IMG/VR virus record: IMGVR_UViG_2563366822_000009
DNA: 11,226 bases
Direction: 5' to 3' (one strand)
Source: a virus
Lineage: Duplodnaviria > Heunggongvirae > Uroviricota > Caudoviricetes
Shown here: positions 843 through 9,587 of the stretch, one piece after another
Layout: the number at the start of each line of letters is the position of its first letter
How positions within the stretch are numbered: the stretch's first letter is position 1
Notes under the pieces: model-generated
Databases searched by the model: none
Seen by the model: only the letters and a program-made list of their open reading frames with translations
What the model was told of the DNA's origin: nothing
Made by a program: the position numbers and the translations under genes

Positions 843-2297
843 CTATTGTTTTAATAACATTTCAAAATCCTCATTCCAGTGCGTGTTTTGTGAAATACGG
901 GTATCAATTTCATCAAGCAGCATATCATGAGAAAGTATGCTTAAAGGGTCATTCCCATTTTTACCAAAACGCATCGTAGTTTCTGCTATTTCCCAATCTT
1001 CTGCGCTGATTGATGGCTGTATTGCATGGCAGTAGATAGCCTTCACATCCTTTTCATGACAGTCAAAATTATTGATGCTTTCTGCAATTTTACGAGCTCT
1101 TTCAATTTCGACAACTGGACCATGTAAAGTTTCATATGATATATGCACAATTGTAGGGGTATTATCTGGAACCTGTCGTACCACTTTGCTTAAGTGCGTT
1201 TTAATATCTTTTGCTTTTTTATTAATCGATTCCTCTGCTATACATTCCCAACGAGCACAGTAACCAGAGTGTATTCCAGTGCAAAAAATGTTAAGTATAT
1301 CAACACCGTCGTCCGGACCTACTCGTACAAGTCCTTTTGGGGCACAAAGATGAGTGTAATTTTCGCTGCTGCTAAAACTTCCGGCCAACAACGAAACCAT
1401 CTGTGGAGAGTTCCATTTAACCATGTATTTATCAAAATGCTCATTGATATTTTTCATATCTATTCTATTAATCAGTATTATAATTTCATCATTTTCTATT
1501 CTCAGTGACTTTCTCGTCGAGATATTAGACTTTATTTCATTGAAGATTTTTGCTAAAATATATTCATCTGTATCTTTTACTTCAACCTTGAAAAGCACGT
1601 CTAAAAATATGTTTTGTCTAGACTGAGTTAGAATAGGTACTAAATTGAGCCATCTTTGCCTCCATTCTCGACGCTCATTTTCAGAATATTCAGTCACTTT
1701 AGATAAACGCTTACATTCCACAAAAAAGCTTTCTTCACCTTTAGTAACTTTTAAATCAGGAGTTTTATTTAATGCTGTTTCTGGAATAAATTCTACTCTA
1801 TAACCATTGCGCGCATACATAATCGCAACAACTAATTCAAACAATGTTGAATCAGGTTGATTTATTTTACCGTTAAGAAATTCCGAAAGTTTTTCATCAA
1901 TCCCAACAATTTTTTTTGCAAGCTCAATATGTCTTCCAACAGCCGCAAAAAAGGGAAATACTCGGGCTGATTGCGCTAACTCGCTAACTAAAGGCCGTTC
2001 ATGTAAGCATTCTACAAGAAAAAGATACCATGCAACCCAATCCTCATGAAATGCCACCCTATTTTTTGGCTCTTCCATACTCTTCATTGCTTGGTCAAAA
2101 TTCTTATAGGTGTTATCTTCCTGTTCTCTGAAGTACTTGACTACATTTTTTTTGCGAGTCTCCCAAGTATCCTTTTCCAGATAAGATAAAAACCAGTCCA
2201 ATGCAATTTTCGTATGATGATGCCAGGGACTGGTATCCGTTGCTGCAAAAATCTCTTGTAGTTCTTTTGAATATTCCAATGTCTGTGTGTTAGCCAT
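843..2297 (-). CDS. Hypothetical protein, 484 aa, in A+T-rich cargo island; PD-(D/E)xK-like motif (E154, D181, E194-C-K196); function unknown
   Basis: Long uninterrupted ORF in A+T-rich DNA. ATG at 2295-2297 is preceded by GAGG with 5-nt spacing; stop TAG at 843-845. Motif codons checked directly: D181 at 1755-1757, E194 at 1716-1718, K196 at 1710-1712. I do not recognise the family. Confidence 0.85.
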   Translation of the reverse strand: MANTQTLEYSKELQEIFAATDTSPWHHHTKIALDWFLSYLEKDTWETRKKNVVKYFREQEDNTYKNFDQAMKSMEEPKNRVAFHEDWVAWYLFLVECLHERPLVSELAQSARVFPFFAAVGRHIELAKKIVGIDEKLSEFLNGKINQPDSTLFELVVAIMYARNGYRVEFIPETALNKTPDLKVTKGEESFFVECKRLSKVTEYSENERREWRQRWLNLVPILTQSRQNIFLDVLFKVEVKDTDEYILAKIFNEIKSNISTRKSLRIENDEIIILINRIDMKNINEHFDKYMVKWNSPQMVSLLAGSFSSSENYTHLCAPKGLVRVGPDDGVDILNIFCTGIHSGYCARWECIAEESINKKAKDIKTHLSKVVRQVPDNTPTIVHISYETLHGPVVEIERARKIAESINNFDCHEKDVKAIYCHAIQPSISAEDWEIAETTMRFGKNGNDPLSILSHDMLLDEIDTRISQNTHWNEDFEMLLKQ

Positions 2298-2668
2298 TTT
2301 GACCTCATCATTGTTAATTTATGAGATTTTACAACTTATAATGCATCTTCCAGATCGAGCCTCCAAGTAAGAAATCAGGCTAAATCAGACAGATATGTAA
2401 TATATCCCTAGTCAATTAGGCAGTCCACCCATAAATCCTAACAGTACGAAAATGGTTGGAACGTTATCCTAGGTTACTGCTCATCGTTTCCTTATGACCT
2501 CAATATATAAATATCCCAGCTCTTGCGGTTCGATTGTATGATTGACAGTCCGCTCCTGGCACAAAGCGGACAACCACGCCAGATCTACCCTGTGCCATGA
2601 AAAATGAGAATGTCAATTCACTCCTGAACTAATGCTTTTTAATCTAGTAACGTCTAAAATACCTAACA

Positions 2669-3070
2669 TTATCCCTGATAAAATGCCAGTATGCGCTGCA
2701 TAACTTCACTCATCCGGCACTCGCGACAGATTATGTTTAGGCGACTGTCGTAGCGACGTATTTCTCCATCAGGTAACGACCAGATAAGGTCCGGATCAAC
2801 CACAGCTGTTTTCTTCACCTTTGCCCTCGATAGTTTTTTGCGGGCGTTTTGCCAGTCCTTACGCGCCTGTTCAGACGGGAATAACCCGTAGCCGGAGTTG
2901 TATACATCGCCACTGGCTACCAGCTCTCTGGCAAGAACGCTCATCAGATATCTAGTCGCACCTGTTTTAGCTTCCAGTTGCCGTAACGTCTCACGACCAC
3001 TCTGGCGCACGAGTTCCACCACCTGCCCTTTAATTTTTTCCCGCTCTTCTTGTGTAAAAACTTTTGCCAC
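2669..3070 (-). CDS. Hypothetical protein, 133 aa, GTG start; possible winged-helix DNA-binding protein
   Basis: ORF with GTG at 3068-3070 preceded by AAGGGGGA; no in-frame ATG until codon 43. The segment TLRQLEAKTGATRYLMSVLARELVASG resembles a helix-turn-helix. Sits where lambda P would be but is too small to be a helicase loader. Confidence 0.55.
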   Translation of the reverse strand: MAKVFTQEEREKIKGQVVELVRQSGRETLRQLEAKTGATRYLMSVLARELVASGDVYNSGYGLFPSEQARKDWQNARKKLSRAKVKKTAVVDPDLIWSLPDGEIRRYDSRLNIICRECRMSEVMQRILAFYQG

Positions 3071-3110
3071 AAGTCCCCCTTAAAATTACCTCATGACCTG
3101 AAATCAAAAC

Positions 3111-4076
3111 TTATCCTCTGAAACCAGGCGGAATTTCTGTATCCGGTTCAGAAATATGATTCACACAACGCTGTACAGGTGAACGTCCCAGGCGGATGAC
3201 CAGTTCGTCCCATTTTTCGCGGAGTTTTGACGGGCTCATGATGTTTTTTACCCAGAATGGATCCCGCTGTACCCGACCAAACATTTCGCAAATTTGTCTG
3301 TGGCTTCTGCCATCCAGCATCCGCATTGTGCGCACGTCATTGGCCCAGGCTGTCCAGTTAGGCTCTTTTGGTCGCATGATCTCTCCATCGTCGCTGGCAG
3401 CCTGTTCGTAAAGGTTCACGATCCGCCCCCAAATCCACTGCGCACACGCCAAATCCTCCCTGCTACCCCACTGGCGTTTTTTCACACTAAACACAACCGC
3501 GTCGGGGTTCCGAGTTAAAAAATCCTGTTCAGTCGTCTGCGGGTCCGGTTGCGAAGCTTCCGGACGAAAAGTGTTTTTATTCTCTGTAGTAATCTCTGTT
3601 GTATTCTCTGTAAGATCATCAGGCCATTTTGACCCGATGACATTGGGTCGTTTTGAACCAATGGAGCGTTTCATTTTGACCTCTTCCATCGTGTCATTTT
3701 GACCTGATGGAGCGGCGCATTTTGAACCGATGGATTCGTTCAATTTGCCACCATCTAAAAGCTCGCTCCCATAGTTGATCGTGTAGAAATTGGTCATATC
3801 GCGCTTTGATTTATTGAGCTTTTCACAACGCAAAAGCCCCAGCGTTTTCAGACTTGCAAACGCGCGCTTTAACGTTGACTCTGACCAGAATGGGAACTGT
3901 TCCAGCCATTGTTCCGTTGTGTTATAAATCCAGCGAACACCATCACATTCCATACCGGAGTTGGTATCTCTCAACCAGTAGTGCAGTTGTTGCAAAACAA
4001 TGGCTTCGTTTAAGCCGATTTTCATTGCCAGCTGCGTGTTTATAACCAGTGGGCGTTCAGCAAAAAGAAGACTCAT
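3111..4076 (-). CDS. Phage replication initiator, lambda O-like, with the replication origin embedded in the coding sequence
   Basis: Start taken at the ATG at 4074-4076; the track ORF begins at a TTG at 4128-4130. The N-terminal region has a winged-helix-like segment (WSESTLKRAFASLKTLGLL). A central low-complexity linker (SIGSK repeats, TENTTEITTEN) coincides with the DNA iterons and A+T-rich repeats. Position is immediately downstream of the cro-like and cII-position genes, as in lambdoid phages. Confidence 0.7.
   Translation of the reverse strand: MSLLFAERPLVINTQLAMKIGLNEAIVLQQLHYWLRDTNSGMECDGVRWIYNTTEQWLEQFPFWSESTLKRAFASLKTLGLLRCEKLNKSKRDMTNFYTINYGSELLDGGKLNESIGSKCAAPSGQNDTMEEVKMKRSIGSKRPNVIGSKWPDDLTENTTEITTENKNTFRPEASQPDPQTTEQDFLTRNPDAVVFSVKKRQWGSREDLACAQWIWGRIVNLYEQAASDDGEIMRPKEPNWTAWANDVRTMRMLDGRSHRQICEMFGRVQRDPFWVKNIMSPSKLREKWDELVIRLGRSPVQRCVNHISEPDTEIPPGFRG
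3578..3613. repeat. A+T-rich tract with three tandem 12-bp repeats (TCTCTGT core) flanking the iterons; candidate DNA-unwinding element
   Basis: TCTCTGT occurs at 3581-3587, 3593-3599 and 3605-3611, preceded by GAAAAGTGTTTTTAT. It lies on the side of the iterons that is downstream in gene orientation, matching the ori-lambda layout of iterons followed by an AT-rich region. Confidence 0.5.
3625..3755. repeat. Origin-of-replication iterons: five to six tandem ~23-bp direct repeats, core CATTTTGACC-GATGGAGCG
   Basis: Repeat units begin at 3625, 3649, 3672, 3695, 3718 and a degenerate sixth at 3741; the TTTTGA core recurs at 3627, 3651, 3674, 3697, 3720. Periodicity is 23-24 bp, inside the O-like CDS. 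Confidence 0.7.
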
Positions 4077-4802: not shown

Positions 4803-4820
4803 TGTTAGATTTTTCTAACA
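4803..4820. promoter_or_regulatory. Operator palindrome TGTTAGA-TTTT-TCTAACA in the dicC/dicA divergent intergenic region
   Basis: Perfect 7-bp inverted arms with 4-bp spacer; the same arms recur at 5314-5331 and degenerately at 5349-5366. Confidence 0.55.
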
Positions 4821-4847
4821 TTATTGTGCGCGGGATACCTAAGTCAA
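4819..4847 (-). promoter_or_regulatory. Putative sigma70 promoter for the dicC-like operon (minus strand)
   Basis: On the minus strand: -35 TTGACT (4842-4847), 16-bp spacer, -10 AATAAT (4820-4825). The predicted transcription start overlaps the operator palindrome. Confidence 0.35.
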
Positions 4848-7115: not shown

Positions 7116-9587
7116 ATGAGTAAAGTCTTTATTTGCGCCGCTATTCCTGACGAACTGGCAACAAGGGAAGAAGGCGCTGTGGCTGTAGCCACAGCCATTG
7201 AAGCTGGCGACGAACGCCGTGCTCGAGCAAAATTTCACTGGCAGTTCCTGGAACATTATCCGGCTGCTCAGGACTGCGCTTATAAATTTATTGTCTGCGA
7301 GGATAAACCTGGCATACCCCGCCCTGCCCTCGATTCATGGGATGCTGAATATATGCAGGAAAACCGCTGGGATGAGGAGTCTGCTTCTTTTGTCCCGGTT
7401 GAGACTGAATCCGATCCGATGAACGTCACTTTTGACAAGCTGGCCCCTGAAGTACAGAACGCTGTCATGGTTAAGTTCGACACATGTGAAAACATCACCG
7501 TTGATATGGTTATTAGCGCACAGGAATTGTTGCAGGAAGACATGGCAACATTCGACGGACATATCGTTGAAGCGTTGATGAAAATGCCAGAAGTTAACGC
7601 CATGTATCCGGAGCTTAAGTTGCACGCCATTGGGTGGGTTAAGCATAAATGTATTCCTGGTGCTAAATGGCCCGAAATTCAGGCAGAGATGCGCATCTGG
7701 AAAAAACGTCGCGAAGGTGAACGCAAGGAAACCGGAAAATACACGTCTGTTGTTGATCTCGCCCGCGCCAGAGCCAATCAACAGTACACTGAAAATTCAA
7801 CAGGAAAAATCAGCCCGGTCATTGCTGCCATTCATCGCGAATACAAGCAGACATGGAAAACACTGGATGACGAACTGGCCTACGCTCTCTGGCCTGGTGA
7901 TGTGGATGCCGGAAACATTGACGGCAGCATCCATCGCTGGGCAAAAAAAGAAGTTATCGACAACGACCGCGAAGACTGGAAGCGTATCTCGGCATCAATG
8001 CGCAAACAGCCTGATGCCCTTCGCTACGACCGCCAAACTATTTTTGGCCTTGTCCGTGAGCGTCCGATCGACATTCACAAAGATCCCGTAGCACTGAACA
8101 AATATATCTGCGAATACCTGACGACAAAGGGCGTGTTTGAGAATGAAGAAACAGACCTGGGCACTGTTGATGTTCTCCAGTCATCAGAAACACAAACTGA
8201 TGCAGTGGAAACTGAGGTATCTGATATCCCAAAAAATGAAACCGCGCCGGAAGCTGAACCATCTGTAGAGCGTGAGGGGCCGTTCTATTTCCTCTTCGCA
8301 GGTAAGGACGGAGAAAAATACGGTCGCGCAAACAAACTTTCTGGTCTGGATAAGGCACTGGCTGCTGGCGCCACTGAAATCACAAAAGAAGAATATTTTG
8401 CCCGAAAAAATGGCACATACACGGGCTTACCGCAAAATGTTGATACCGCTGAAAAGACCGAACAACCAGAGCCGATAAAAGTTACCGCTGACGAAGTAAA
8501 CAAAATTATGCAGGCAGCCAATATCAGCCAGCCTGACGCCGATAAGTTGCTTGCTGCATCACGTGGTGAATTTGTTGAAGGGATTAGTGCCCCGAATGAT
8601 CCGAAATGGGTTAAGGGGATCCAGACCCGCGATTCTATGAACCAGAACCAGCATGAATCGGAACGGAACTACCAAAAAGCGGAACAAAACAGCCCAAATG
8701 CGTTACAAAACGAGCCAGAAACGAAACAGCCTGAACCAATGGCGCAACAGGAAGTGGAAAAAGTCTGCACCGCCTGCGGTCAGACCGGCGGCGGCAACTG
8801 CCCTGATTGTGGCGCGGTGATGGGCGACGCAACATACCAAGAAACATTCGATGAAGAGTATCAGGTTGAAGTTCAGGAAGATGATCCGGAGGAAATGGAA
8901 GGCGCTGAACATCCACACAAGGAGAACACTGGCGGCAATCAGCATCACAATAGCGATAATGAAACTGGCGAGACGGCAGATCACTCAATTAAGGTGAACG
9001 GTCATCACGAAATCACATCCACCAGCAGGACGTGTGACCATCTAATGATCGACCTTGAAACCATGGGAAAAAATCCTGATGCCCCGATCATCTCAATAGG
9101 TGCAATATTTTTCGATCCGCAAACCGGAGATATGGGACCGGAATTTAGTAAGACTATCGATCTGGAAACTGCTGGCGGAGTCATTGATCGGGACACCATT
9201 AAATGGTGGCTTAAGCAATCACGCGAAGCGCAATCTGCCATTATGACCGATGAAATCCCGTTAGATGATGCACTGTTACAATTGCGGGAATTTATCGACG
9301 AAAACTCCGGTGAATTTTTTGTTCAGGTTTGGGGAAATGGAGCCAACTTCGACAACACGATTTTGCGCCGTTCATACGAACGGCAGGGGATCCCCTGCCC
9401 GTGGCGTTACTACAACGATCGCGATGTACGCACAATCGTTGAGCTGGGGAAAGCCATAGATTTCGATGCCAGAACGGCTATTCCATTCGAAGGTGAGCGC
9501 CATAATGCACTTGATGACGCCCGTTACCAGGCAAAATACGTTTCAGTTATCTGGCAAAAACTGATCCCGAGTCAGGCTGATTCTTAA
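7116..9587 (+). CDS. Large prophage protein, 823 aa, with C-terminal DnaQ-like DEDDh 3'-5' exonuclease domain; resembles the family annotated exodeoxyribonuclease VIII / YdfE-like in E. coli prophages
   Basis: ATG at 7116, stop TAA 9585-9587. C-terminal motifs seen directly: Exo I MIDLETMG (D646, E648; codon 9051), Exo [10 protein letters not shown] (D746; codon 9351), Exo III HNALDDA (H796, D801; codon 9501). Acidic low-complexity linker with C-x2-C-x7-C-x2-C zinc ribbon at 8766-8810. Segment [31 protein letters not shown] resembles a RecE segment as I recall it. Confidence 0.9.

Follow-up and report, generated by a model that had tools for sequence, protein, structure and literature searches.

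Tandem repeats inside a protein-coding gene raise the question of whether they are kept for the DNA or for the peptide, and, if for the DNA, what that DNA does. We addressed this question in an 11,226-nucleotide stretch from a Caudoviricetes virus (IMG/VR record IMGVR_UViG_2563366822_000009), hereafter the window, in which an earlier note, made from the letters alone, had recognized the arrangement of ori-lambda. The repeats do lie at the junction between the N- and C-terminal domains of a replication-initiator gene, as judged from its match to PHROG 391 and from the homology of its C-terminal domain to that of lambda O. On the sequence evidence set out below, we hold with good confidence that a Qin/mEp460-like lambdoid prophage has its vegetative replication origin at positions 3576-3755, within the gene of its own initiator. 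A gene present at a coverage of at least 80% in 1,749 of 5,426 complete E. coli genomes, where RefSeq labels it mostly as 'hypothetical protein', would thereby gain a function, with its origin pinpointed. Origins within initiator genes have precedents in lambda, P22 and RepA_N plasmids, and this arrangement is itself already known; the unexpected part is an array of 12-mers that is conserved across phyla.

The initiator gene and its repeats

The gene product matches PHROG 391 ('replication initiation O-like') over its full length (E 1.9e-92; residues 17-321 on positions 11-298 of a 298-position profile). Genes 96-98% identical to it are found in phages PhiR42_1 and HannyBb, annotated as 'DNA replication protein O' or 'replication initiation O-like protein', and the iteron and 12-mer DNA is nearly unchanged in these modules, with 1 substitution in each of the two copies compared. 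In HannyBb, a sequenced phage, the module is the only annotated replication gene, and the genome annotation contains no helicase or loader anywhere. The C-terminal domain is 34% identical to lambda O over 148 residues (BLASTP, E 1e-27), in which the C-terminal domain is the P-interacting part. The N-terminal domain, which belongs to a family of 10,213 clusters, showed no similarity to residues 1-134 of lambda O by BLASTP, and a Pfam scan of the initiator gave no Phage_rep_O (PF04492) match at E ≤ 0.01; the description of the initiator as O-like therefore holds for its C-terminal half and not for its N-terminal domain. RepA_N (PF06970) was also absent among the Pfam matches. The AF2 model of the initiator is of modest quality (mean pLDDT 56.5), and a Foldseek search of the PDB with its N-terminal domain gave as top match the staphylococcal RepA_N NTD (4pql/5kbj), with weak similarity (E 0.012, TM(target) 0.55-0.57). 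By modelled fold and by iteron style the domain looks more like the RepA_N/DnaD-N winged helices, and it is presumed to be the iteron-binding domain. Residues 85-175 are predicted to form a disordered linker (pLDDT <50, AF2), encoded by the repeat stretch.

A promoter scan returned a pR-like site as its sole find, from which the cro-like, YdaT/cII-like and initiator genes would be transcribed, carrying transcription across the origin. Downstream of the initiator lie a DUF977 gene (annotated Ren-like) and a gene for a 484-aa protein without assigned function; PADLOC gave no matches for the neighbouring genes of unassigned function, and no P-type, DnaC-type or DnaB-type partner gene lies beside the initiator. 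The prophage in the window could be defective.

Table 1. Coordinates of the features of the locus within the window
Feature	Position	Strand	Sequence or basis
pR-like promoter	4820..4847	minus	TTGACT-16-AATAAT; consensus scan only
Initiator gene	3111..4076	minus	321 aa + stop, ATG at 4076; ORF and translation, PHROG 391
N-terminal winged-helix domain, aa 1-105	3762..4076	minus	AF2 topology H-H-b-b-H-H-b-b, pLDDT 56-76
Iteron 1 (degenerate)	3733..3755	minus	GATGGTGGCAAATTGAACGAATC; 13/23 to consensus
Iteron 2	3710..3732	minus	CATCGGTTCAAAATGCGCCGCTC
Iteron 3	3687..3709	minus	CATCAGGTCAAAATGACACGATG; near-perfect palindrome, 21/23 to consensus
Iteron 4	3664..3686	minus	GAAGAGGTCAAAATGAAACGCTC
Iteron 5	3641..3663	minus	CATTGGTTCAAAACGACCCAATG
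Iteron 6	3617..3639	minus	CATCGGGTCAAAATGGCCTGATG; 21/23 to consensus; adjoins the 12-mers
Three 12-mers (ACAGAGAWTACW)	3576..3611 (units 3600-3611, 3588-3599, 3576-3587)	minus	ACAGAGAATACA / ACAGAGATTACT / ACAGAGAATAAA; encodes TENTTEITTENK
C-terminal helical domain, aa 183-297	3186..3530	minus	AF2 helical, pLDDT 65-84; homologue of lambda O C-terminal domain
C-terminal tail ...DTEIPPGFRG	3114..3173	minus	common to Rac YdaU; weakly like DnaT C-terminus (E 0.0058)

The repeats consist of six 23-bp semi-palindromic direct repeats at 3617-3755, five good and one degenerate, with the consensus CATCAGGTCA-AAA-TGACCTGATG, followed in gene orientation by the three 12-mers; both families, and the TTTTGA cores at 3627, 3651, 3674, 3697 and 3720, are as the earlier note had described them. 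Tandem Repeats Finder reported two arrays, one of period 23 at 3651-3734 (3.7 copies, 70% matches) and one of period 12 at 3581-3612 (2.7 copies, 85% matches), and a second repeat search recovered the same repeat families with an iteron spacing of 23/23/23/24 bp. For the core GKTCAAAAYG, 0.23 copies are expected in the whole window, yet 3625-3727 alone contains 5, and the window total of 6 was reached by 0 of 200 shuffles, while ACAGAGAWTA has 3 copies at 3578-3611 against 0.07 expected; the iterons and the array are real and non-random. The two iteron arms are complementary at 8 of 10 positions in the three best copies. Iteron 1 is better conserved in two relatives, L003 and L004, where it reads GAGGTCAAAGTGA, and iteron 6 is invariant in 69 related genes.

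The tract after the iterons, which had been called A+T-rich, is the least stable 36-bp duplex of the initiator gene (dG -39.8 against a mean of -49.3, sd 3.2), but it is only moderately A+T-rich: the array has about 65% A+T, its flanks are not A+T-rich, and the GC content of 3560-3619 is 0.35. Among 216 loci that carry the array, it forms the local stability minimum in 64%, a share that rises to 94% where GC is at least 0.5 and falls to only 11 of 56 loci in low-GC hosts, so that ease of melting cannot explain why the array is conserved. Its polarity is nearly fixed: of 225 loci, 183 have periodic repeats upstream of the array and 6 have them downstream, and the period is 23 bp in 145. The array is probably the invariant core of the origin and its unwinding or helicase-loading site. 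Read by eye as a promoter on both strands, the 12-mers gave at best 3-4 of 6 matches to the -10 hexamer with key bases missing, and this reading was rejected. Primase sites (bottom-strand CTG) were rejected as a general explanation because primase trinucleotide preference varies between phyla while the array does not. An Rfam scan of 3300-4000 found no RNA family, and DnaA boxes (TTWTNCACA) are not enriched: the window has 3, with 1.57 expected, and the one at 3478-3486 is some 90 bp away from the array.

Spread of the array and co-variation of the iterons

Identical array DNA follows iterons of at least seven unrelated types and goes with many C-terminal domains, in loci whose hosts range from Escherichia to Bacillus, Staphylococcus, Burkholderia, cyanobacteria and Chloroflexota. 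A BLAST search of plasmids with the natural 49-mer as query gave matches. One plasmid that has no initiator gene still carries the array, at the fixed position and polarity beside iterons. The array is absent from Rac ydaU and P22 gene 18, which were checked as possible experimentally known examples. The single archaeal match (L197) proved to be a false positive, a DYYGD-repeat protein in another frame. The array is described nowhere in the full-text literature searched (DNA on both strands and peptide forms), although subscription journals may hold a description.

The iterons vary in step with the initiator. Relatives whose N-terminal domains are about 50% identical carry differing palindromic iterons (GGTCAAAATGACC, GGGCAAATTGCCC or GGACAATTTGTCC), and the iteron class tracks both the predicted recognition helix at residues 66-78 (SESTLKR, SSDTVKR or TAKTIQR) and the wing (RDM, HDR or HDQ). 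This co-variation points to a distinct initiator specificity, as the earlier note had proposed from the iteron period and sequence.

DNA-level constraint and alternative readings of the repeats

We compared entropy at codon positions 1/2/3 across 69 unique related genes that are 72-99.9% identical. The N-terminal domain (.175/.093/.595) and the C-terminal domain (.257/.236/.729) vary mostly at third positions, whereas the iterons (.183/.239/.188) have no codon periodicity and the 12-mers (0/.037/0) are invariant at third positions. The iterons do encode the peptide repeats (SIGSK/IGSK) of the predicted inter-domain linker, and the idea that these low-complexity SIGSK and TENTTE segments are selected for a protein function, with the likeness in DNA as a by-product, draws on T156, E157, T159, T160, E161 and T163, which are invariant or nearly so in 93 proteins, and on the reading frame of the array, which is almost always T-E-x-T. 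This frame preference is accounted for by the other two sense frames, which give QRLL or RDYY, and by stop codons in two of the three antisense frames. A codon-usage comparison was dropped since it was biased by how the loci had been found, and degenerate-codon scans and a set of homologues retrieved by protein similarity alone were used instead. In one scan all 120 matches fell within 4 of 49,152 possible DNA sequences; in a second, the same codons recurred in 79 of 84 contexts. The protein-retrieved set has the CAGAGA core in 9 of 9 homologues (gene GC.53-.66), with GAG 25 times and GAA 0 times by hand count over the nine, and ACA/ACT codons are kept in the array even in genes of 57-66% GC. 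Where DNA and peptide part, the DNA is kept: edge units 11 nt apart alter the peptide (TRDY/TREY), P0235 changes it (PETS/PEIS/SETS) and retains CAGAGA, the 23-bp iterons are translated in three frames (SIGSK, SGQN and EVKM), arrays with iterons also occur in non-coding DNA, and frameshifted copies exist. Selection on the peptide is thus already largely refuted and scarcely credible; iterons and 12-mers are constrained as DNA rather than as protein, in agreement with the earlier view that DNA-level constraints dominate here.

Granted a role as DNA, the 23-mers might be operators through which the initiator, or a neighbouring DNA-binding protein (YdaT/cII-like or DUF977), exerts autoregulation or copy control. 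Plasmid iterons also serve autoregulation and handcuffing, and an iteron-like GAGGTCAAAATGG at 2295-2307 overlaps the ribosome-binding site and start of the 484-aa ORF. We regard this as very unlikely, given that the domain-junction position, the multiplicity, the polarity towards a low-stability array and the co-variation with the N-terminal domain match known origins, and that Klebsiella relatives keep the iterons and lack the DUF977 neighbour. The array, in turn, might be a recombination linker placed where the origin-binding and helicase-recruiting modules join, letting initiator halves swap and having no direct role in initiation. Homology to other phages does break there: in Klebsiella phages, whose C-terminal domain is different, it is limited to 3581-4019, and in Stx phages to 3578-3617. 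Moreover, one N-terminal domain family pairs with several C-terminal domain families and vice versa, and the chimeric pPR9 Rep is a documented swap of this kind. Yet mere homology suffices for recombination, which does not call for one particular sequence from Staphylococcus to Burkholderia over a GC range of 35-66%, and a linker would account neither for the coincidence with the duplex-stability minimum nor for a position and polarity that stay fixed beside iterons even in non-coding DNA and on the initiator-less plasmid. If the array is conserved for another reason, module exchange at that point is an expected side effect, and we consider the linker reading unlikely, though less so than the operator one.

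A model of initiation and its relation to known origins

For the origin reading, we envisage that N-terminal winged-helix dimers would bind the six iterons, whose arms converge on an A-tract, to form a bent nucleoprotein complex. This complex may destabilize the adjoining 12-mer array, the least stable duplex in the gene, at which the replicative helicase would be loaded. The lambda-O-like C-terminal domain, with its PPGFRG tail, would recruit the helicase machinery, presumably host DnaB-DnaC because the phage encodes no loader of its own; we offer this recruitment step as conjecture. Rightward transcription from the pR-like promoter would cross the origin, as in lambda. An initiator without a helicase loader makes a simple system for asking how a lambda-O-type C-terminal domain recruits host DnaB.

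In this model the 12-mer array would be what stays constant in a very large family of phage origins whose iteron specificity and C-terminal recruiting domain are free to vary. We infer that a conserved partner reads the 12-mers sequence-specifically, most likely as single-stranded DNA, the candidates being the conserved winged-helix initiator superfamily or a universal replisome component, in analogy to oriC 13-mers and DnaA-trios or to the 13-mers of plasmid RK2. Put most broadly, (ACAGAGAHTACW)2-5 may be an unrecognized sequence-specific core of pan-bacterial phage, prophage and plasmid origins, a fixed companion to thousands of winged-helix initiators that have otherwise diversified freely in iteron specificity and helicase-recruiting domain. 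A conserved surface of the initiator superfamily, or a universal replisome component, would read it in a DnaA-trio-like manner, probably in single-stranded form; this proposal is a tentative one, about which we are slightly more doubtful than confident. If it is true, the 36-bp motif would show where the origin lies, and exactly where opening or loading takes place, in a large share of the temperate phages of Proteobacteria, Bacillota, Cyanobacteria, Chloroflexota and candidate phyla, and would expose orphan plasmid origins. The array is a rare case of roughly 36 bp of DNA that hardly changes between phyla or with GC content although it sits in mosaic phage genes that evolve fast. Should it be an opening or loading signal, it would provide a one-line computational marker for phage origins and a way into the step of phage and RepA_N-type initiation that is least understood, and would explain why initiator genes recombine exactly there.

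Like ori-lambda (gene O) and the P22 origin (gene 18), the locus has several dyad-symmetric iterons centred on an A-tract (TCCCTCAAAACGAGGGA in lambda, GGTCAAAATGACC here). As in lambda, the iterons occupy the stretch of the initiator gene where the N- and C-terminal domains meet, and a low-stability purine-rich tract comes after them in gene orientation; the initiator C-terminal domain is homologous to O, and the gene stands downstream of cro/cII-like genes and a pR-like promoter. The 23-bp period had been counted as a difference from lambda, but lambda iterons, 18-19 bp long, start 20, 24 and 23 bp apart, much as the 23/24 bp here, so that only the iteron sequence differs. The N-terminal domain and the iteron number of six also set the locus apart from lambda, and from both lambda and P22 it differs in having no P or gene-12 partner and in its low-stability tract, three ACAGAGAWTACW units in place of A-rich ACAAAAGACA repeats.

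The RepA_N plasmids pSK41 and pTZ2162 share the three-part initiator, with a winged-helix NTD that binds iterons lying centrally in its own gene, a dispensable ori-encoded linker and a host-specific CTD; the Rep protein of pSK41 functions without its ori-encoded central domain. As in these plasmids, the iterons here sit within the initiator gene, are semi-palindromic and converge on a poly-A tract, and the predicted linker is ori-encoded. The locus differs in its lack of a Pfam RepA_N match, its weak fold similarity, its lambda-O-like CTD and its setting in Enterobacteria phages and prophages rather than Firmicute plasmids.

The oriC and RK2 13-mers and the DnaA-trios are short repeats in unwinding elements that the initiator reads as single-stranded DNA. 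The 12-mers resemble them as short direct repeats of fixed polarity directly beside a presumed initiator-binding array, in the least stable segment; their sequence is unrelated to these elements and only about 65% A+T, and, unlike plasmid 13-mers, they are conserved across phyla and across initiators of differing DNA-binding specificity. In lambdoid-looking E. coli phages, the non-lambdoid Eru modules of Stx phages replace O-P, Eru2B and Eru3B being DnaB-type helicases; the paper on these modules contains no origin analysis and uses the word 'iteron' 0 times. In the Stx2_14040 module, genes annotated 'DNA helicase' and 'replication protein' follow the initiator, whereas none do here; the 12-mer array in Stx phage initiators, that of Stx2_14040 among them, is identical to the one here.

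A probable origin inside the initiator gene

Neither Pfam nor NCBIfam recognises the initiator protein, and neither has a model for its N-domain; of 5,426 complete E. coli genomes, 1,749 carry the gene at a coverage of at least 80%, and in most of these RefSeq (PGAP) labels it 'hypothetical protein'. A full-length match links the protein to PHROG 391, 'replication initiation O-like' (E 1.9e-92), and its C-domain is 34% identical to the lambda O C-domain (E 1e-27); protein comparison found no similarity between the N-domain and lambda O. AlphaFold2 predicted a winged-helix N-domain (aa 9-103, pLDDT 56-76) and a helical C-domain (aa 183-297, pLDDT 65-84), as well as a disordered segment (aa 85-175, pLDDT below 50) that is exactly the repeat-encoded part. 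The top, though weak, structural matches of the N-domain model were 4pql and 5kbj, N-terminal domains of staphylococcal RepA_N proteins, with DnaD-N lower in the list. In RepA_N initiators the bound iterons sit centrally in the initiator's own gene, an anatomy shared by the gene in the window.

Tandem Repeats Finder located a 23-bp periodicity at 3651-3734 and a 12-bp periodicity at 3581-3612 in the window, and a second, separate repeat search recovered the same families with iteron spacings of 23, 23, 23 and 24 bp. For the iteron core GKTCAAAAYG, 0.23 occurrences are expected per window and five are present within 3625-3727; for ACAGAGAWTA the expectation is 0.07, and three copies stand in 3578-3611. 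No shuffled sequence attained either count. These searches and counts bear out the repeat coordinates and copy numbers of the earlier note, which had proposed a lambda-like origin within the initiator gene, and that interpretation is supported by the O-like match, the disordered linker, the constraint on the DNA and the minimum of duplex stability. Origins of this type are a known kind, of which the probable one in the window is an uncharacterised new member; the 12-mer array is what sets it apart.

Features of the initiator region and its surroundings
Feature	Position	Strand	Remark
Initiator gene, 321 aa	3111-4076	minus	ORF and translation
Six 23-mers (iterons)	3755 down to 3617, gene orientation	minus	
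12-mers ACAGAGAATACA, ACAGAGATTACT, ACAGAGAATAAA	3611 down to 3576	minus	five bases past last iteron
C-terminal tail ...IPPGFRG	3114-3173		
Seventh iteron-core copy	2295-2307	minus	
Predicted pR-like promoter	4820-4847		
cI-like repressor		plus	
P22-Cro-like gene, YdaT/cII-like gene, initiator, DUF977, 484-aa unknown		minus	in that order
Integrase, excisionase, exonuclease			on other side of region
484-aa ORF	843-2297	minus	
Intergenic region, roughly 370 bp	2298-2668		precedes 484-aa ORF
823-aa protein	7116-9587	plus	

The 23-mer consensus is a palindrome, CATCAGGTCA-AAA-TGACCTGATG. Arm complementarity is 8/10 in iterons 3, 5 and 6, mainly the left arm is retained in iterons 2 and 4, and iteron 1, degenerate in the window, is better preserved among relatives. 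Phages PhiR42_1, mEp460_ev081 and HannyBb carry 96-98% identical genes with nearly unchanged iteron and 12-mer DNA (one substitution in each of two copies compared). Relatives with N-domains about 50% identical have different palindromes at the same place. The core of the window, GGTCAAAATGACC, accompanies the recognition helix SESTLKR and the wing RDM, GGGCAAATTGCCC accompanies SSDTVKR and HDR, and GGACAATTTGTCC accompanies TAKTIQR and HDQ; the wing residues D-M are retained in more distant members that again have GGTCAAAATGACC. Such co-variation is what an initiator-iteron pair predicts, and suggests putative binding of the iterons by the N-domain. The 484-aa ORF has the seventh iteron-core copy, GATGAGGTCAAAATGGC, overlapping its ribosome-binding site and ATG; this copy may be either a chance occurrence, GAGG...ATG being typical of start regions, or a regulatory site for the initiator.

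Distribution of the 12-mer array

The 12-mer array is the point where the finding exceeds an ordinary lambda-like origin. As DNA, (ACAGAGAHTACW)n is conserved in initiator genes of phages and prophages that span many bacterial phyla and GC contents (loci L128-L135, L137-L256 and L363-L371), preceded by at least seven unrelated iteron classes and followed by many different C-terminal domains. Arrays identical to that of the window occur in Klebsiella phages, with the same N-domain and a different C-domain, in Pantoea phage AH07, with different iterons, and in Stx phages, where both N-domain and iterons differ. BLAST with a 49-bp segment matched 91 GenBank phage records, among them phages of Acinetobacter (21), Bacillus (14), Klebsiella (12) and Staphylococcus (9) as well as Erwinia, Burkholderia, Pseudomonas, Vibrio, Geobacillus and Providencia, and in almost every annotated record listed the match lay in an O-like, DnaD-like, replication/primosomal or HTH-type regulator gene. 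In each of eight phage loci that we read, ranging from 35% to 65% GC, the array directly follows a different iteron set. A bacterial scan of one genome per species returned at least 120 matches; those listed include Gamma-, Alpha- and Deltaproteobacteria, Bacillota, Chloroflexota, Cyanobacteria, Gracilibacteria, Nitrospirae and Fibrobacteres, and in 80/120 of them (two-thirds) the motif has 90 or more codons to either side within a complete ORF, its usual distance from the ORF start being about 150 codons. The single archaeal match listed was a false positive. No earlier account of the array turned up in the literature open to search, a scope that does not include two key reviews.

Across 241 unique arrays the consensus unit is A-C-A-G-A-G-A-[T/A/C]-T-A-C-[A/T], usually in three copies (range 2-5). 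Units are spaced by 12 nt in 378/402 cases, and the rare 11-nt spacings retain the DNA and alter the peptide. In 183/225 loci the array has periodic repeats upstream of it, and in only 6 downstream. Array-carrying proteins have a common N-domain, with Y33 and W34 conserved at 90% or more, and their C-domains are of the Phg_2220_C, DUF6017, DnaD, DnaA_N, DnaT or lambda-O-C type; the neighbouring gene encodes a DnaC-like loader, a DnaB helicase or a G39P-type loader, or there is none. Clustering at 50% identity divides the N-domain superfamily into 10,213 clusters; of the single-domain members inspected, most contain the 12-mer motif or a degenerate form. In a further set, with the long proteins P0125, P0127 and P0130 (roughly 390-880 aa), the N-domain is present in two tandem copies.

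Iteron-preceded arrays also lie in non-coding DNA (L151 ~7640-7905, L160 ~1500-1770, L188 ~1-265, L240 ~3210-3490). The iterons of a Hyphomicrobiales MAG (L151) and of Orenia (L160) resemble those of the window (TGGTCAAAATGACCA, GTTGTCAAAATGACAAC), and in the MAG the element recurs close to contig ends, in at least four contigs (L151, L176, L213, L219). The 8.4-kb rolling-circle Bacillus plasmid pBSG3 (L359, NC_014104) carries non-coding phage-type iterons, similar to those of Bacillus phage PM1 (CCTACAGGGAAAGA), and three 12-mers at 700-845, and encodes no initiator N-domain. By its sequence this appears to be an orphan phage-type origin, which could be a decoy titrating phage initiator or a means of hitch-hiking on phage replication. 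Lambda and P22 are without the array and have their own A-rich repeat ACAAAAGACA at the same position. The common form, ACAAAAGACA(C/A)TAT, lies in the A+T-rich tract after their differing iterons (lambda, L136 620-680; P22, L362 1925-1965) and may be the lambda-family counterpart of the array.

Constraint on the DNA and the role of the array

Selection of the repeats as peptide, in a protein-level linker, is contradicted by codon-position entropies, codon choice, protein-retrieved homologues and the non-coding arrays. The entropies come from an alignment of 69 unique related genes, all with the same class of iteron and 72-99.9% identical in pairs. At codon positions 1, 2 and 3 they were.175,.093 and.595 in the N-domain and.257,.236 and.729 in the C-domain, the variable third positions being the usual signature of protein-level selection. 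This codon periodicity was absent from the iteron region (.183,.239,.188), and the 12-mers (0,.037, 0), together with the iteron adjoining them, were essentially invariant. The iteron period of 23 is not divisible by 3, so copies of the same DNA repeat are read in different frames, as SIGSK, SGQN or EVKM. A fully degenerate back-translation of TENTTEITTE gave 120 matches in viral contigs that use only 4/49,152 possible DNA sequences, always with GAG, AAT, ATT, and ACA or ACT, and a degenerate scan for TEITTEIT met the canonical codons in 79/84 distinct contexts; by sequence context the other five look like unrelated proteins. For a check free of DNA-based ascertainment, nine homologues (gene GC.53-.66) were retrieved by N-domain protein similarity alone and their DNA was read afterwards. 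The CAGAGA core encodes the motif in 9/9, is kept even where the peptide has changed, and the arrays contain 25 GAG and no GAA (counted from printed sequences). The linker is frameshifted in some close relatives, a change that implies retention of the underlying DNA motif; proteins P0133 and P0134 read the 12-mers as QRLQQR.

Klebsiella-phage nucleotide similarity ends exactly at the distal edge of the array (3581) and Stx-phage similarity is confined to it (3578-3617), breakpoints that make the array a junction where initiator N- and C-halves were exchanged. Retention of the array for such recombination would, however, explain neither its particular sequence, nor its polarity next to the iterons, nor the non-coding and plasmid copies, and we regard exchange as a consequence rather than the cause. 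It is also unlikely that the 23-mers serve as operators only, as they match known origins. The array is the least stable 36-bp duplex in the gene (dG -39.8 versus a mean of -49.3, sd 3.2), and it overlaps the stability minimum of the surrounding ±300 bp in 64% of 216 loci, against an estimated 11% or so by chance. The overlap reaches 94% at GC of at least 0.5; in low-GC hosts the array is usually not the minimum (11/56 are). Stability minimum, position and polarity together fit a site of unwinding and helicase loading. With an A+T content of only about 65%, and usually without the minimum in low-GC hosts, the array needs a sequence-specific reader to account for its letter-level conservation. 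What all cases share is limited to the winged-helix N-domain superfamily and the universal bacterial replisome, which favours reading by the initiator assembly; we infer that this assembly would read the array as single-stranded DNA. DnaA-trios and the RK2 13-mers are analogues read in this form.

Genomic context and helicase recruitment

The initiator gene lies in a lambdoid immunity and replication region, and transcription from the predicted pR-like promoter would traverse the repeats. Window 843-3110, downstream of the initiator, contains no P, DnaC, DnaB or primase gene, PhiR42_1 and HannyBb have none for P, DnaC or DnaB next to their initiators, and the whole HannyBb genome (L360) has no annotated replication gene other than the initiator, pointing to an initiator-only replication module in the window and HannyBb. 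The C-terminal tail is common to the initiator and Rac YdaU (L361 2120-2977), occurs as VPAGFRS and VPHGFRG in Klebsiella and Pantoea relatives with an unrelated C-domain, and weakly resembles the last 20 residues of the primosomal protein DnaT (E 0.0058). Perhaps a short docking motif, the tail provides a lead, not a result, for direct recruitment of the host helicase.

The sole match of the 484-aa ORF is phrog_37220 (unknown function), with none in Pfam, NCBIfam or PADLOC; as other genes occupy its position in PhiR42_1 and HannyBb, it looks like inserted cargo. The 823-aa protein, called 'exodeoxyribonuclease VIII' in related phages, has a C-terminal Pfam Rv2179c-like 3'-5' exoribonuclease domain (E 2.3e-67).
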